Virus record (IMG/VR): IMGVR_UViG_3300044641_005618
Length of the DNA: 64,000 bases
Strand: one strand, 5' to 3'
Origin: a virus
Lineage: Duplodnaviria; Caudoviricetes
Part shown: positions 1,685-19,932 of the stretch, piece by piece
Layout: each line of letters opens with the position of its first letter
Position numbering within the stretch: position 1 is the first letter of the stretch
Notes under the pieces: model-generated
What the model was told of the DNA's origin: nothing
Database searches by the model: none
The model's input: only the letters and a program-made list of their open reading frames with translations
Program-made: the position numbers and the translations under genes

Positions 1685-3448
1685 CTAATTAAAAAGGTCG
1701 TAGCCGGATCCGCTCCGAAGACCTCGGCTGCGGCCACCCCGGAAAATGCCCCTATCAAGTGTCTCGGCAGACTGGGGGTCAGGGTCGTTTAAGCCCGTAC
1801 TGCGGGGGACTCTTCGGCCCCCGACCGATACAATTCGCTCTTCGAAAAGCCCACCGTAGGATTGACCGTCTCTGAACATCGGTCTGCGTAGGTCACCAGC
1901 CCATTTTCGACTCTGAATGATCGAGTCTTGTATACCCCGATCCACAGAGTCAATTTTGAGCGAGTAGTAAGTCAGCGCCCATACCATGGCGTCAGTACTA
2001 TCGTCGTGGCGAACATACGGGAAAGAAGTTAGTTCCTTTACGAACGCGTCAGTCCATAGTCCTCGAACCAGTATAACGCGATGGTTTTCGAGTAAAGGGC
2101 AGACTGCCTGAAGACGTGTCGTCTTTGACTTCAGCGGCCTCATTTCCTCGATAGGTATCTTAGCCTCTCGCTTCAGCATTTGAATGAGAGAGTGCCCCGA
2201 TGCGGCTTTCTCAATGCATAATACCTTTGCGTTGTATAAGGCGTAATGTTGCTTTACCGAGTCAATCAAGTCAGGAAAGCCCCACTTACCCTTAACAATC
2301 TCACGAATGTAAACAGTATCTGGATTACGAGTGTTTATGCCCGCGACGCAGATTGCACTTTCATCTGCTTTCTCTCGCTCGGAGAAAGCGCAGTCAACTC
2401 CAAACCATACAACGTCCAGGGGAGGGCAGTCTTCCTCCTCAATTACCTTGACCCAGCTATTCTTTACAATCTGTCCCTCAGCCGATACAGGAACCCCTTG
2501 GTAAAGTGCTGCGAACTTAAAGCTACCCATTATCTTTTTCTGGGACTCAAGCATCGGAACAGAGAAAGCGGGGTTGTCGGGCCAGTGGCTTTCTCCCATC
2601 TCTCTTCCCAGCGGATCATTATCAGGGTCTTCACAGAGCCCTGCTATGTTTATCCACCTCCATCCAAAAGGATTATCTTCCGGGTCGTATAAACCATCTC
2701 CATCCATCAAGACCCCGTGAAGGTCTTTTTCATGAAAACGGGTTGCTATAATAACTTGAGCGTAGTGGTTTGTTCTTCGTGTGGACATTTGCTCTGCCCA
2801 CCAACTTTCTAAATTGTCCAGCGCTGCTTTAGAGTCAGAAGATTTCAATGGGTCGTCAATTAGTGCTGCACCAATACCCGTGGATTCCATGTCTATGGTT
2901 CCAGACGTGAACCCAGTGAGAATACCTCCAACGGATGTCGCAAGTACATAACCACCACCCACTAAATCATATTTCGAGTCACGGTTAAATCCTGAAAACT
3001 CAGGAAAGACCTTCCTAAACGAGGGAGTCTTCATCATTACGACAGCTTCTCTGTGAAACTTTTGAGATAAAGAAGCCCCGTAGGAAGCCAAGATGTGTTG
3101 GGTTCTTTCGTCTTTTCCGAGCAACCACGCCAGGAACATTGTGGAAAGCATAGACTTTCCTGAACGCGGGGGGCACGAAATAATAAGCCGATTGTATCGA
3201 CGTTCGTAAAGATCCTCAAAGGCACTTGCAATGATCTCGTGAAAGGGGGAAACGTTTAAGTCCCCATTTTTCATGATGTCACAAAAGGCCAGGAAACAAT
3301 CTCGGGCAGCCTTAAACCTGAACTCCTGAATTACAGATCGAGGTGCTTCAAGAAGTTCAAGCTCTCGAATACCCTTCGTATATTTTCTCCACCGGGATTT
3401 TTCCTCTAGCTGAGAAGCGTGTGTTATAGACGGGGGGCGAAAGTTCAT
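1685..3448 (-). CDS. terL: terminase large subunit
   Basis: CPPRSGKS Walker A, LIDDP Walker B, ATRFH coupling motif, RNase H-like GVDCA...DESA...IEKAASG...HDDSTDA. Confidence 0.93.
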   Translation of the reverse strand: MNFRPPSITHASQLEEKSRWRKYTKGIRELELLEAPRSVIQEFRFKAARDCFLAFCDIMKNGDLNVSPFHEIIASAFEDLYERRYNRLIISCPPRSGKSMLSTMFLAWLLGKDERTQHILASYGASLSQKFHREAVVMMKTPSFRKVFPEFSGFNRDSKYDLVGGGYVLATSVGGILTGFTSGTIDMESTGIGAALIDDPLKSSDSKAALDNLESWWAEQMSTRRTNHYAQVIIATRFHEKDLHGVLMDGDGLYDPEDNPFGWRWINIAGLCEDPDNDPLGREMGESHWPDNPAFSVPMLESQKKIMGSFKFAALYQGVPVSAEGQIVKNSWVKVIEEEDCPPLDVVWFGVDCAFSEREKADESAICVAGINTRNPDTVYIREIVKGKWGFPDLIDSVKQHYALYNAKVLCIEKAASGHSLIQMLKREAKIPIEEMRPLKSKTTRLQAVCPLLENHRVILVRGLWTDAFVKELTSFPYVRHDDSTDAMVWALTYYSLKIDSVDRGIQDSIIQSRKWAGDLRRPMFRDGQSYGGLFEERIVSVGGRRVPRSTGLNDPDPQSAETLDRGIFRGGRSRGLRSGSGYDLFN

Positions 3449-3477
3449 ATTACACTGTTATACGTTTTACGGGTCTC

Positions 3478-3777
3478 TCACTCAATACTTTTTAGCAACT
3501 TCGTAAGTGTCCCGTTATATTCTTTCGCCAGGATCTGCTCCTGTTTGCTCTCCGAATCGGTCAGACTCACAATATCCGACACAATCTCGCGGTGTGCTTT
3601 CACAGCCGAGTTGAACACGGTCACAAGATCCCGAGTACTACACTCCTCCAAGTGGTCTTGAAGCAGCTCAAGAGCGTCTTCAGCAACCTGCAATGCTGCT
3701 GCGGCAAGGGTCTCTTTCTGCCTCAGAATTTTGTCGTTCGAATTTGTTATCATAGTGTTTTTCTGCATCGTGAGCAC
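3478..3777 (-). CDS. small helical protein, possible terminase small subunit
   Basis: 99-aa helical ORF directly upstream of terL; the assignment is from position only. Confidence 0.4.
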   Translation of the reverse strand: MLTMQKNTMITNSNDKILRQKETLAAAALQVAEDALELLQDHLEECSTRDLVTVFNSAVKAHREIVSDIVSLTDSESKQEQILAKEYNGTLTKLLKSIE

Positions 3778-3902
3778 CCTGTATTTGAAGTTGGGTAACT
3801 CTTGAAGTTTTGCAATTGTTTAAGGATCGCCTGTGCCAAGGCTGTATTGTTGGACTTAACGGCAACGTCATACTGTGCCCAGAGCTGTGCGGGAGTTGCC
3901 AT
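3750..3902 (-). CDS. hypothetical protein (50 aa)
   Basis: ATG at 3902 (MATPAQLWAQ...) tiles between neighbours; the ORF-track start overlaps the upstream gene. Confidence 0.5.
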   Translation of the reverse strand: MATPAQLWAQYDVAVKSNNTALAQAILKQLQNFKSYPTSNTGCSRCRKTL

Positions 3903-16023: not shown

Positions 16024-16467
16024 TCAGGTTCGGTCCCAAGAGTTCACGGTTAATTGAATCTCAATCTCCTGGACATTGCCGCTTTCACGGTCAACATCGG
16101 CGGTATTAAGAGACATGAACTGACACCCGTAGCAAGTGTATTGGCCGCCAGCAGGGGCTGATCCGTTTCCAACACAGTCCTTCGGAGTGACTGTAACTGT
16201 GATTTCTCGGCAATTGTACTGCAACCAGTAAATTTCCAACTGCTTGAAGATCGTGGGATCGTACGGAGCAGAAAGGGAGATGTTGTCTACCTTTTTGGGG
16301 CCTACAACTTTGTAAATACGGTTACCAGTACCATTGGCGTAGTCACTGCTACTTGAGGAATCCTTGATTCCGCTGAATTTTGTAAACGTGGCGATTAGTG
16401 TGGGTCCGTCAGGAGCTACGAAGCTAACTTCGTACTGGGACTTTGTAATCGGTCTGAGAATAGCCAT
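16024..16467 (-). CDS. tail tube protein (T4 gp19-like)
   Basis: FTKFSGI...NISLSAPY...EITVTV...YTCYGCQFMSLNTADVDRESGNVQEIEIQL; AGGAGG ribosome binding site. Confidence 0.75.
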   Translation of the reverse strand: MAILRPITKSQYEVSFVAPDGPTLIATFTKFSGIKDSSSSSDYANGTGNRIYKVVGPKKVDNISLSAPYDPTIFKQLEIYWLQYNCREITVTVTPKDCVGNGSAPAGGQYTCYGCQFMSLNTADVDRESGNVQEIEIQLTVNSWDRT

Positions 16468-16495: not shown

Positions 16496-19400
16496 TCAGG
16501 ATAGGATGTTGGTGATCATAGCGCCAGAACCAATAAGACCAGTTGCGCCGAGGCCAACTAGGTTAACCACACGTTCAATTGTGATTTCAGCACGAACAAC
16601 GCGGCGTTCACGAATGTAGTATTCGGGACGGACGGCGGGGGTGCCTGTGAGCTGATATGTGTAAGAGAAGGCAGGAGTCGCAGCATTCGCACCACCAGCA
16701 GGCATGATGGAATCAGAAGGACCGTTAGGGCTGTAGAACAGAAGGATACCGTTAGCGGGGAATACCGGCTGTAGGGTTCCATCTTGCGCTAAGTAACGAC
16801 CTTCGGCAACACGTAGGCCACGCTCAAGACCGAAGTAGCGAGCAATGACGTCAGTGTCGACGCTGTCTGCAGATGTGTACTTGATACGATCAAGGATCTT
16901 CTCGTTGGTCAGCAAGAGGTCAAACACGGCAGTACCGACGACTGCGGAGTTTGGACGGATACCGATTTGGTTGGCGACTGCACGCTTGAGGGTTAGGATG
17001 TCTTCAATTGGGTTAGAAGTAGCACCAGACCAGGCGGCGTCTCCAGCAACGGAGCCGTAAGCTGTCTTAAAGTTTGTCCAGGTTGTGAAACCGAGTCCGG
17101 TCTGGGAACCTGCGGTTCCGTTGTAGGGCTCGTAAGGGTTGTAAGTCGCGGTGACGGAAACAGCTTGAGCAACGGTGTACTCGTAGCTGTTCATCAATCT
17201 GGACATTGCATTCCTGGTTTCGATTGCGCGAAGATCTACTTGTGCAGGCAAATTGTTATCGTAAAGGCTCTTTATCCCTTACTTCTTTCTGTTTCCAGAA
17301 AGTTCAGACTATATCTTCACCTTTGCTAAGCAAAGGGCTGGGCGCTCGTGGACGAGTTATTGTTGTCGAAACTCATCGTCTAGTCGTTGAACCTTTTTAC
17401 CACAGAAATCATAGCGATTTCTCGACGTAGTAAACTCGGCTGCTGATTGCCTGTTTCTTTAACGGAAATTCAGGGATCCCAGCAATTCACCCAGTTAATT
17501 TGTGGTTAAGCTGCCACAGCAAGAGCCAAACAACCCTCGCCAGCGTTTTCAATTCAATACTGTTACCGTAAAGGCTCTTTATCCTTTACTTCTTTCTGTT
17601 TCCAGAAAGTTCAGACTATATCTTCACCCTTGTTAGGGTGCTAGGCGCTCTTGTCAGCTTCATCACTGTTCTAGTGGTATGCTGTTAGTCGTTGAACGTT
17701 CTCTCAGTCCCCTGAGAGTTTCGCTGCTGATTGCCTTGTGTTTCAGAGAAGTCACTCCTGAAACCGTCAGGTTTCCCAGCAATTCACCCAGTTTTTCTTT
17801 CAGTTTCTCAACTGATGGAGGCTATTGATTCAACCTCTTCAGGCAATTCCCAGGCGACCACTTCCTGCTCTAGAGCATAAGGCTCAGAGTCGTAGCGGCT
17901 TTGGACGTATGGGATGTTAGTTCCGTAAGCACGACGGAAATCGTTTATAGCAAACTGCTCCTTCCCAAATCTGAGAATTCTCCCAGCGCGGGTAGGGGTG
18001 TCCACAACCGGTGCGATAAACACTTGTTACCGTGAAGGCTCTTTATCCTTCACTTCTTCGCATTTCTGCAAAGATCAGACTATATCATCATCTTCCTTAA
18101 ACTTTTTAACAACGGTTCGCAGAGACTGCCAAGTATTACCTAGACCGGTTAGCCGGAACAGCTTCCTGGCCCCACACTTTTCGTTAGAAACCCAAACTTC
18201 ATGCAATAAACCTAAATTAGACCAAACTTCGACATTAGCCCGAGGGTTTTTAATGCCTGTTCGATCCCGGTCGGGTCTATTAGCGGCTTGCAAGGCGAAT
18301 TGTATAGTTGGTTTACTAAGTGCCTTATCTTTAAGTTTCTGTCTTGATTCTGCACTCCACACTCTGTTCTTGCATAATTCTGCACGAGCGGATCTTTCTT
18401 TATCAGACATTGGAACTTTCCTGGGTCTGGCCTTTCCTTTATTGGATTTGCCAATTTTAAACCTAGTTTCGTCCGAGTGTTTATGATGAGCTAAGGTTTC
18501 GTACACTCTGGAGTTTTTCGAAGACTCCTTGAAAGAGTTTATAGCTTTGCCTAACCTCTTTATGGAAGAGAAAGCTAGAGCCAGTAGGCAGTGAGACAGG
18601 TAGTGCTCTCTGTAGGTGAGTTTGATTAGGTTACCATCTTCATTTCCACCCTTCATGCACTTGGGCACTATATGGTGAATGTGGTGTCCGGGTTCTCGTG
18701 TCAAACTCCTTGGGGGTCTGGAGAGGATAAACTTTATGTACCGTTGGTAGTGTAAGGGAGAGTCGGGCGCTCGTGGAAAGATTATTTCAGGGTTGATCAC
18801 TTTCTAGTCGTTGAACCTTTTTACTTAACACTACTATAGTTAGTAGAGACCCTAAGTAAACTTGGCTGCTGATTGCCTATTTTGCAAAAGCAAAACTAAG
18901 GTATCCCAGCAATTCACCCGATTTTCAATCAGAGTCACCTCTGAGTGGAACCCTATCGATTCGCAATGTTGGTGGACAGTATGTTTTCTCTGCTTACACA
19001 GAGTGTCGGACTATCTTATCGTTTCTTTACAAAACGTTGGGCGCTCTAGCCTGTTATTAAGGGAACTAAATCCCCCAGGTAGTCTCTGAACCTTCTTCCG
19101 GTGTACCGGAAGCTTGGCTGCGGATTGACCCTTTTGCTAAGCAAAAGTAGGCTTTCCCGCAGTTCACCCAATTTCTTTTCCCCTACACCAAAGGGAGCAT
19201 GAAGCCTTGTGCGAGTGTTGTGAGGATTGGCCAGTGTTATCGCAAAAGCTCTTTATCTTTTGCTTCTGTATGTTTCCATACAGGTCAGACTATATCATCA
19301 TCTTTGCTTGAGCAAAGAGTCGGGCGCTCGTGGATTGTTCGCCTGTTCTAGGCTACTTAATCTAGTCGTTGAACCTTGCCCCTATCCCTAGGGGCCTTGG

Positions 19401-19793
19401 CTGCTGATTGCCTATTTTGCAAAAGCAAAACTAAGGTATCCCAGCAATTCACCCGATTTTCAACTTTGTTTGGAAGTTGGGACCCTAATTAATCCACACC
19501 TGCATAAGTTTGTTGTAGCAACTTGTTATCGTAAAGGCTCTTTATCCTTTACTTCTCTACATTTCTGTAAAGTTCAGACTATATCATCATCTTTGCCTGA
19601 GCAAAGAGTCGGGCACTCGTGTCAGCCTCATCACTGTTCTAGTGGTACGCTGTTAGTCGTTGAACCTTGCCCCTATCCCTAGGGGCCTTGGCTGCTGATT
19701 GCCTATTTTGCAAAAGCAAAACTAAGGTGTCCCAGCAATTCACCCGATTTTCAATCAGAGTCACCTCTGAGTGGAACCTTTATGATTCATCAT
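16496..19793 (-). CDS. major capsid protein, 351 aa, spliced from 7 exons: 19785-19793, 19492-19518, 19192-19230, 18959-18976, 17833-18020, 17533-17554, 16496-17248
   Basis: Joined exons total 1056 nt with no internal stop: MMN-LQQTYAGVD-PILTTLAQGFMLP-STNIAN-FIAPVVDTPTRAG...ELPEEV-IENAGEG-PAQVDLRAIE...; lies between the decoration and tube genes; lambda gpE/Mu-like capsid character (NPIEDILTLKRAVANQIGIRPN). Confidence 0.88.
17249..17532 (-). mobile_element. group I intron 6 of the capsid gene (284 nt, no ORF)
   Basis: P/Q/R/S core; P1 GAGGGU/GCUCUU; ends ...GATAACAATTTG before CCT GCA. Confidence 0.9.
17555..17832 (-). mobile_element. group I intron 5 of the capsid gene (278 nt, phase 2, no ORF)
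   Basis: P/Q/R/S core; P1 GAGGU/GCCUC puts the cut inside the Val codon (GT|A); P10 UCAAU/AUUGA. Confidence 0.9.
18021..18958 (-). mobile_element. group I intron 4 of the capsid gene (938 nt, carries an HNH endonuclease ORF)
   Basis: P/Q/R near 18920-18805 and S near 18075; P1 GAAU/GUUC; P10 CGAUAGG pairs 7 of 7 nt with 3' exon UUUAUCG. Confidence 0.92.
18075..18800 (-). CDS. intron-encoded HNH homing endonuclease with NUMOD3-like repeats
   Basis: HHIHHIVPKCMKGGNEDGNLIKLTYREHYLSH motif; HSDETRFKIGKSNKG; the ORF occupies the P8 region and its last codons (DDDIV*) are the intron S element. Confidence 0.85.
   Translation of the reverse strand: MINPEIIFPRAPDSPLHYQRYIKFILSRPPRSLTREPGHHIHHIVPKCMKGGNEDGNLIKLTYREHYLSHCLLALAFSSIKRLGKAINSFKESSKNSRVYETLAHHKHSDETRFKIGKSNKGKARPRKVPMSDKERSARAELCKNRVWSAESRQKLKDKALSKPTIQFALQAANRPDRDRTGIKNPRANVEVWSNLGLLHEVWVSNEKCGARKLFRLTGLGNTWQSLRTVVKKFKEDDDIV
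18977..19191 (-). mobile_element. group I intron 3 of the capsid gene (215 nt, divergent, no ORF)
   Basis: P GAACTGCGGGAA and Q AATCCGCAG (compensatory change relative to the others), R GTTCAGAGACTA, S AAGATAGTCC; P1 UCCCU/GGGGA; P10 pairs 7 of 8 nt with UCCACCAA. Confidence 0.9.
19231..19491 (-). mobile_element. group I intron 2 of the capsid gene (261 nt, no ORF)
   Basis: same P/Q/R/S core; P1 GGAU/GUCC; ends ...GATAACACTGG before CCA ATC. Confidence 0.9.
19519..19784 (-). mobile_element. group I intron 1 of the capsid gene (266 nt, no ORF)
   Basis: P GAATTGCTGGGA, Q AATCAGCAG, R GTTCAACGACTA, S GATATAGTCT; upstream exon ends in U, intron ends in G; P1 GAAU/GUUC. The 3' splice site could alternatively lie 3 nt earlier (also a G, also in frame). 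Confidence 0.88.
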
Positions 19794-19829
19794 AATAGAT
19801 GTTTCCTTGTGTGTAAAGTTGACTTCAAA

Positions 19830-19845: not shown

Positions 19846-19901
19846 TGACCCGCGAGTCCGAAAACTTTGGGGTCACTGTAGTTATACCCTTCTTTTTCAC
19901 G

Positions 19902-19932
19902 AAAAAAGCCCCCAACTCGAAAGTTGAAGGCT
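19902..19932 (-). terminator. intrinsic terminator after the decoration gene
   Basis: 11-bp stem AGCCUUCAACU/AGUUGGGGGCU (two G-U pairs), UUCG loop, U-tract. Confidence 0.8.

Follow-up and report, generated by a model that had tools for sequence, protein, structure and literature searches.

The major capsid gene of an uncultured freshwater phage has very probably been invaded by six selfish group I introns, each of which splices independently within this essential late gene. The gene lies on the minus strand (19793 to 16496) of the window analysed here, that is, the whole 64,000-nucleotide stretch of IMG/VR record IMGVR_UViG_3300044641_005618 (Duplodnaviria; Caudoviricetes). Scanning the 64-kb window with Infernal (cmscan, gathering threshold) yielded six matches to the Rfam group I intron family RF00028, which are confined to positions 17285-19798 of the minus strand. 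They were full length (model positions 1-253) and scored 66-103 bits against a gathering score of 50, with E-values of 1e-14 to 1e-25. This agreed with a preliminary description of the DNA, made from the letters alone, which had proposed six group I units in the capsid gene and no intron elsewhere in the window. A permissive scan (E≤0.01) of the same 64 kb found neither a seventh RF00028 match nor any other RNA family, and ARAGORN found no tRNA in the window.

With the minus strand read and the exons joined by script, the six introns took up 2242 of 3298 nucleotides (nt), all within the first 101 codons (the final one sits after codon 101), and the seven exons (Table 1) formed 1056 nt, or 351 codons, with no internal stop. 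The spliced product of 351 amino acids (aa) was letter for letter the contiguous protein P0002, over all 351 residues. All six 5' exons ended in T and all six introns in G. The same six boundaries were recovered by our own spliced-alignment program, whose sole inputs were the coding sequence and the U/G rule. Exon lengths, intron share, stop-free frame and border letters were all as previously described. Because the six introns already give the exact homologue sequence, the capsid gene of the window contains no core-less mini-introns. The open reading frame (ORF) listing shows only exon 5 (within a 71-aa ORF) and exon 7 (a 251-aa ORF), again as anticipated.

A search with exon 7 alone retrieved 311 homologues. 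PF03864 (phage major capsid protein E) is present in every one of them, and many have a length of 348-356 aa and start with the residues encoded by the micro-exons. The capsid protein matched PF03864 with an E-value of 1e-10, and the whole spliced protein matched the phrog_1005 major head protein across residues 2-335 (E 1.8e-52). Judged from these profile matches, the gene product is a lambda gpE-type major capsid (head) protein. The reconstructed N-terminal 101 aa are present in intron-less homologues, of which they are the most conserved part. The closest cultured capsid, from Synechococcus phage S-CBWM1, is 66.7% identical in amino acids over its full length and is encoded in one uninterrupted (intron-less) piece. 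Megablast of the region against named phages gave two short matches only, both covering intron sequence. The closest genome record, G001, comprises 277,244 bp of viral sequence with a completeness rating of 98%, and another relative, G002 (IMGVR_UViG_3300044846_005229), is 279,339 bp long, has terminal repeats and is rated 100% complete. The runs that contain the phage are lake-water metagenomes. Since the relatives' genomes measure 277-279 kb, the source is an uncultured jumbo phage from freshwater with a genome of about 280 kb, its size being taken from G001 and G002. As a first guess, its hosts would be picocyanobacteria.

Joined exons in environmental RNA

P0002 is encoded on three 1.5-kb contigs (L001-L003), in which the exons are joined exactly as predicted and which extend into the tail-tube gene downstream. 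These contigs start at window positions 19813-19823, 20-30 nt upstream of the ATG. Four other contigs (L004-L007) lack introns 4-6 and keep introns 2-3, and they match L001 at 100% identity over 1.0-1.2 kb (exon 7 and downstream). L001 is 98-99.4% identical to the nearest intron-bearing DNA, which spans most of the compared segment, but 77-79% identical in nucleotides to the nearest intron-less contigs.

The preliminary description had proposed junction reads in RNA as a check, and at the contig level the joints were found in RNA libraries and not in DNA contigs. Three metatranscriptome runs from three studies (X15, X16 and X18) contain the joints across introns 1 and 2, as well as the joint spanning introns 3 and 4 with the letters of exon 4 between its sides (Table 1). 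For introns 5-6, only X16 has a joint (17249>17833), with an exon 6 variant of 21 letters and 4 differences lying between. The DNA runs X1 and X2 have no joints, and DNA contigs cross every exon/intron border with 0 mismatches. Coverage of the intron-bearing stretch was 76-96% in 14 DNA runs from 14 studies vs 42-52% in the RNA runs. A sharper comparison came from L016, an intron-less contig whose individual exons match those of the G002 capsid gene at 97-100% identity and whose 5' 400 nt contain 11 junctions. The share of this joined 5' region was 0.42-1.00 in 12 RNA runs vs 0.16-0.26 in the best DNA runs, the latter being about what is expected from words lying within single exons. The JGI samples behind L004-L007 and L016 are presumably metatranscriptomes. 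As the junctions are found in RNA and are nearly absent from DNA, the joined form is an RNA species. On this contig-level evidence, precise excision and exon ligation occur in lake-water RNA.

In RNA runs X15 and X18, contig depth was about 25-31 over exons 5 and 7, 0-5 over introns 4-6 and 8-28 over the region of introns 1-3. Together with the partly joined contigs that keep introns 2-3, this pattern hints at slower splicing of the 5' introns, contig depth being a poor measure. About 430 nt located upstream of the capsid gene in G002 DNA (2273-2731 of the reverse complement of L164+L112) are absent from L016 (3421-3451). This difference could be an extra intron undetected by Rfam, or a strain indel.

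Ribozyme structure and the intron 4 endonuclease

P1 is 4-10 bp long in all six introns, with U.G pairing at the splice site. P10 comprises 7 bp in intron 4 and, by eye, 5-7 bp in introns 3 and 5, the three introns for which it had been described beforehand. All P1 and P10 pairings are confined to the intron's own flanking exons, even at the 9-nt exon 1. The six reactions would therefore need no fixed order, which the partly joined contigs fit. In every intron, an in-frame stop lies 3-27 nt past the 5' splice site. Stops near the 5' splice site are known in phage introns and are thought to halt ribosomes before they unfold the ribozyme (PMC3984707). Here, they would likewise halt ribosomes on unspliced RNA before the ribozyme core.

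Introns 1, 2, 4, 5 and 6 are 62-79% identical to each other and have in common an extra 3' hairpin after P9, because of which the Rfam matches stop about 35 nt short of the true 3' splice sites. Intron 3 is shorter and of a separate type, with 56-59% identity to the other five. An insert of 30-36 nt follows the P7 5' strand, with a covarying 4-bp helix (columns 192-195/218-221); it fits the phage IA type (P7.1/P7.2 of IA2), the subgroup being assigned by eye. The five introns would form one IA-like family, with a helix between P7 and P3' and the extra hairpin after P9, while intron 3 would be of a different type. In an RNAalifold analysis of 26 introns of the capsid gene (from the window and its relatives), 37 of 49 pairs were preserved through changes on both sides. 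Pairs kept by double changes imply that the ribozymes are under selection.

Some intron copies share blocks of sequence. The identity reaches 99% over 92 nt between introns 1 and 4 and 100% over 68 nt between introns 2 and 4. This mosaic identity suggests recombination between intron copies, through which the introns would have become mosaic. Public short-read contigs break inside the capsid gene precisely where the copies share these blocks, and such genes will often be fragmented or collapsed in metagenome assemblies.

The ORF in intron 4 matched the phrog_655 homing endonuclease (E 1.3e-22) and NUMOD3 (21.3 bits, cut-off 20.4). Its match to Pfam HNH was weak (E 0.16), and a His...Asn...His motif is visible in the translation. 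It is a predicted HNH/NUMOD3 homing endonuclease.

Table 1 Features of the split capsid gene and its surroundings (positions in the window; CDS, coding sequence).
Feature	Position	Strand	Evidence and remarks
Shine-Dalgarno-like AAGGA(AAC)	19801..19808	-	Read from sequence; ~10 nt upstream of ATG
Exon 1, 9 nt, MMN	19785..19793	-	Joins and spliced alignment; homologues begin MMNL
Intron 1, 266 nt, after CDS nt 9, no ORF	19519..19784	-	RF00028 89.2 bits (match 19798-19555); joint 19517>19784 in RNA runs only
Exon 2, 27 nt	19492..19518	-	Scripted joins, RNA contigs
Intron 2, 261 nt, after nt 36	19231..19491	-	RF00028 97.1 bits (19526-19266); TAA directly after 5' splice site; joint 19230>19492 in RNA runs X15, X16, X18
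Exon 3, 39 nt	19192..19230	-	Scripted joins, RNA contigs
Intron 3, 215 nt, after nt 75	18977..19191	-	RF00028 66 bits (19212-18987); compact, without 3' hairpin extension
Exon 4, 18 nt, STNIAN	18959..18976	-	Letters found between sides of joint 18020>19191 in RNA runs X15, X16, X18
Intron 4, 938 nt, after nt 93	18021..18958	-	RF00028 72.2 bits (18971-18056); endonuclease ORF in P8 region
Predicted HNH/NUMOD3 homing endonuclease gene, 241 aa, in intron 4	18075..18800	-	Runs from P7 region through P8; stop in P7 3' strand
Exon 5, 188 nt	17833..18020	-	Scripted joins; 100% identical in RNA contigs
Intron 5, 278 nt, after nt 281, phase 2	17555..17832	-	RF00028 103.2 bits (17842-17592)
Exon 6, 22 nt	17533..17554	-	Homologues read ...PEEV-IENAGEG-PAQV...
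Intron 6, 284 nt, after nt 303 (codon 101)	17249..17532	-	RF00028 85.3 bits (17560-17285); 10-bp P1
Exon 7, 753 nt including stop codon	16496..17248	-	PF03864 Phage_cap_E
Tail-tube-like gene, 147 aa, downstream	16024..16467	-	phrog_35249/5102 tail tube protein; on L001-L003 with spliced capsid gene

Upstream of the capsid gene, a 157-aa gene had no family match in profile searches. Just past it, at 19901-19932 on the minus strand, an 11-bp hairpin (two G.U pairs) with a TTCG loop followed by six T was noted by eye; it is not listed by the terminator scan. This intrinsic-terminator-like hairpin would make the capsid gene a separate transcript. Scans for sigma-70 promoters and terminators gave results not above the shuffled expectation, and a single promoter-like site close to the start was discarded because it overlaps the ATG.

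Intron sites and alleles in related phages

The best 80 of 236 related capsid loci in IMG/VR were compared. Nearly all of these 80 were uninterrupted, with 87-95% protein identity, and several lay on 50-100 kb contigs. A 23-nt motif of the intron 3' hairpin (GATAAAGAGC...TAACA) occurred in at least 119 viral contigs (loci L096-L214). Among the listed matches, most are unrelated phages without this capsid gene, so the intron family is widespread, and 17 have the capsid gene in pieces. Some of the motif-bearing contigs look, by their identifiers, like prophage-type records.

Intron numbers in the relatives were obtained from Rfam scans and spliced alignment, with three relatives aligned to a closer intron-less reference without internal stops and with two partial genes (L126 and L144+L114) excluded. 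The capsid gene has five introns in G001, L171 and L175, six in L124 and L184, nine in L192, eleven in L203, and 13 in the complete genome G002 (L164+L112, contig 67.7-81.3 kb). The six introns of the window are real, but the density, which had been called extreme, is exceeded in relatives with as many as 13 in this gene. The G002 gene spans 5,781 nt, has exons down to 5, 8 and 10 nt, and is stop-free once joined. RF00028 matched at all 13 positions, at 12 above the cut-off and at the endonuclease-bearing site-273 intron just below it. The 5-nt exon of G002 is too short to hold a full P1 or P10, and therefore splicing order or neighbour effects may matter in this genome. Three more RF00028 matches in G002 (L215, G002:C1:18500-23500, at about 1880-2960) split a DNA primase gene (phrog_25243) into an N-terminal part (2924-3856) and a C-terminal part (909-1892); the window has no such intron.

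Across these alleles, the introns occupy about 15 sites (coding nt 9, 36, 41, 75, 93, 150, 160, 192, 273, 281, 303, 318, 356, 895 and 927), the boundary at site 93 being ambiguous in one relative (nt 86 vs nt 93). For 47 of 61 introns, the best match in another genome was at the same site. Several sites have both a short form and a long form (861-1023 nt), and an ORF of 211-269 aa is present in each long form. For most of these ORFs, a relationship to the endonuclease of the window is detectable, with 27-64% identity across sites. The window allele is itself a mosaic, in which the introns at sites 36, 75 and 93 are 99-100% identical to those of L124/L184, while those at sites 281 and 303 are 98-99% identical to those of L175. 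Conservation is 99.5% in codons 1-120 vs 94% in the rest. No intron lies in the variable codons 121-180, and the two 3' sites (895 and 927) fall in the next most conserved block.

Same-site matches, long and short forms, mosaicism and conserved sites together look like the signature of homing elements that cycle through gain, endonuclease loss and intron loss. Under the explanation that we favour, homing would have spread the introns into the best-conserved DNA of a gene that is indispensable to the phage. Homing into a conserved essential gene would explain why occupancy varies, with 5-13 introns at about 15 sites and with or without endonuclease genes. Each intron, having its own P1 and a local P10, would splice independently, and the removal of all six restores the 351-codon frame.

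The introns might further be kept as weapons, their endonucleases cutting intron-less capsid alleles on co-infection and thereby converting or excluding them in an arms race between jumbo phages. This idea adds to the selfish-intron explanation and does not exclude it; we consider it somewhat unlikely. The roughly 15 sites with site-specific, divergent HNH endonuclease paralogues speak for it, as do the several allele configurations among near-identical phages, two of which are combined in the window allele. There is a precedent in phage PhiPA3, whose intron endonuclease gp210 is reported to interfere with a phage infecting the same cell (PMC11620839). However, an endonuclease gene is present in only one of the six window introns, and neutral homing cycles predict the same pattern.

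According to the preliminary description, the six splicing steps could act as a timing or Mg2+/GTP-sensitive gate on capsid synthesis. As an adaptive device, such a gate would delay the synthesis or make it depend on GTP, Mg2+ or temperature. Partly joined RNA contigs (introns 4-6 out, 2-3 in) indicate that splicing is not instantaneous, and the start codon, 9 nt from intron 1, suggests that initiation must compete with P1 formation. Yet different sets of introns, between 5 and 13 in number, are found in close relatives, some of them 98-99% identical in the exons compared, and an almost unchanged N-terminal 120 aa is encoded without introns in the capsid genes of more distant relatives. Such variability is not expected of a conserved regulatory device. 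Presence/absence polymorphism and homing-endonuclease genes point instead to selfish mobile elements, and we regard such a gate as speculative and improbable.

It is very improbable that the joined RNA contigs derive from intron-less strains (as transcripts or contaminating DNA) and that the window allele is unspliced, a dead gene or an assembly chimera: RNA contigs about 2% off the window in exon 7, intron-less alleles in distant relatives and the fragmentation of short-read assemblies by intron repeats would be in keeping with this, but the nearest intron-less contigs are much more distant from L001 than intron-bearing DNA is, the joined form is nearly confined to RNA libraries, most of the intron-bearing stretch is present in DNA runs of 14 studies, every border is crossed by DNA contigs without mismatch, and strong structural covariation goes along with exact restoration of the frame. 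Misassembly and a pseudogene were rejected as explanations, given DNA contigs across all borders, covariation and the restored frame.

Several points weigh against our preferred reading of six selfish, independently splicing introns. Autocatalysis, by guanosine-dependent self-splicing, is a prediction, and the IA2 subgroup was called by eye. The RNA evidence is environmental and at the level of contigs, and it comes from strains about 2% different from the window rather than from reads of the same sample. The lone RNA contig joining exons 5, 6 and 7 diverges at 9 of 84 letters in exon 7. No single short-read contig spans the whole gene, because of the identical blocks shared by the intron copies, and the six-intron combination rests on overlapping contigs. 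The raw DNA read runs taken for intron-less DNA alleles (X21-X23) contained almost no reads of this phage.

Intron load compared with known systems

Group I introns with homing endonucleases in phage genes are a kind already known; what differs here is the load and the target gene. The protein needed in the largest amount would be made only after six independent ribozyme reactions (13 in the relative), and the field RNA data indicate that such splicing works. The gene thus illustrates how far selfish introns can load an essential gene of a bacterial virus. Furthermore, alleles with 5-13 introns, together with intron-less distant genes, form a natural series for studying splicing cost and order, translation vs ribozyme folding, and endonuclease competition. 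There is also a practical side, as gene callers see two capsid fragments, so that genomes of this kind will be missed or misread when phages are detected or classified by their capsid genes.

A bolder view is possible, and we advance it tentatively. The capsid gene may be the most intron-dense protein-coding gene known in any phage or bacterium (six introns here and 13 in the complete 279-kb genome of a relative, where the shortest exon has 5 nt, and every intron spliced under natural conditions), and may serve as a homing battleground of about 15 sites, where endonuclease-bearing introns bias the inheritance of capsid alleles between co-infecting relatives. If this were true, the phage could sustain so many introns in its most strongly expressed late gene only if splicing kept ahead of translation or was protected from it, beyond what is expected for coupled bacterial expression.

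Phage group I introns are textbook rarities, one to three per gene and mostly in nucleotide-metabolism or replication genes. Classical cases are td, nrdB and nrdD of T4, Bacillus phage SPO1, and orf142 of Staphylococcus phage Twort with three introns. Like these, the introns described here are small IA-like ribozymes in a conserved protein gene, in which the 5' splice site has a U.G pair, the last letter is G, in-frame stops follow shortly after the intron start, and endonuclease ORFs (HNH or GIY-YIG) in peripheral loops are optional. Unlike them, six sit in a virion structural gene (13 in a relative) and leave micro-exons of 9-39 nt. In the phage literature consulted, the largest number per gene is three introns or fragments, for DNA polymerase, terL and nrdD (PMC11878797, PMC12880540), and according to a 2014 review, group I introns in bacteria are biased against protein genes (PMC3984707). 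Our literature searches turned up no phage capsid gene described as having many group I introns, and 5-13 introns is the heaviest load that we found reported for any phage gene.

Among phages, the Jug jumbo gut phages (PMC12880540), Bastillevirinae (PMC11878797) and crAss-like phages resemble the present case in having many group I introns per genome, fragmented essential genes and splicing evidence from metatranscriptomes or cDNA. However, two or three fragments or introns per gene (terL, DNA polymerase and nrdD) are reported for them. In the Jug phages, about 18 introns are distributed among many genes, whereas here nearly all introns of a 277-279 kb genome lie in one CDS of 1056 nt.

Outside phages, cox1 of fungal mitochondria, portrayed as a reservoir of group I introns in Agaricus bisporus (PMC2987802), is likewise a conserved, indispensable gene with many group I introns and sites, presence/absence polymorphism, and gain and loss of endonucleases. 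It differs in belonging to an organellar genome in which protein cofactors aid splicing, while the phage gene needs very high expression within one infection cycle. The nearest analogue is the major capsid gene of Faustovirus E12 (PMC6247863), which has 13 exons, some of 13 nt, five group I introns, two of them with endonuclease ORFs, and junction reads in RNA. Faustovirus E12 differs in being an amoebal giant virus with an unrelated capsid fold, and its introns average 1.3 kb, include seven that are not group I, and carry GIY-YIG rather than HNH endonucleases.

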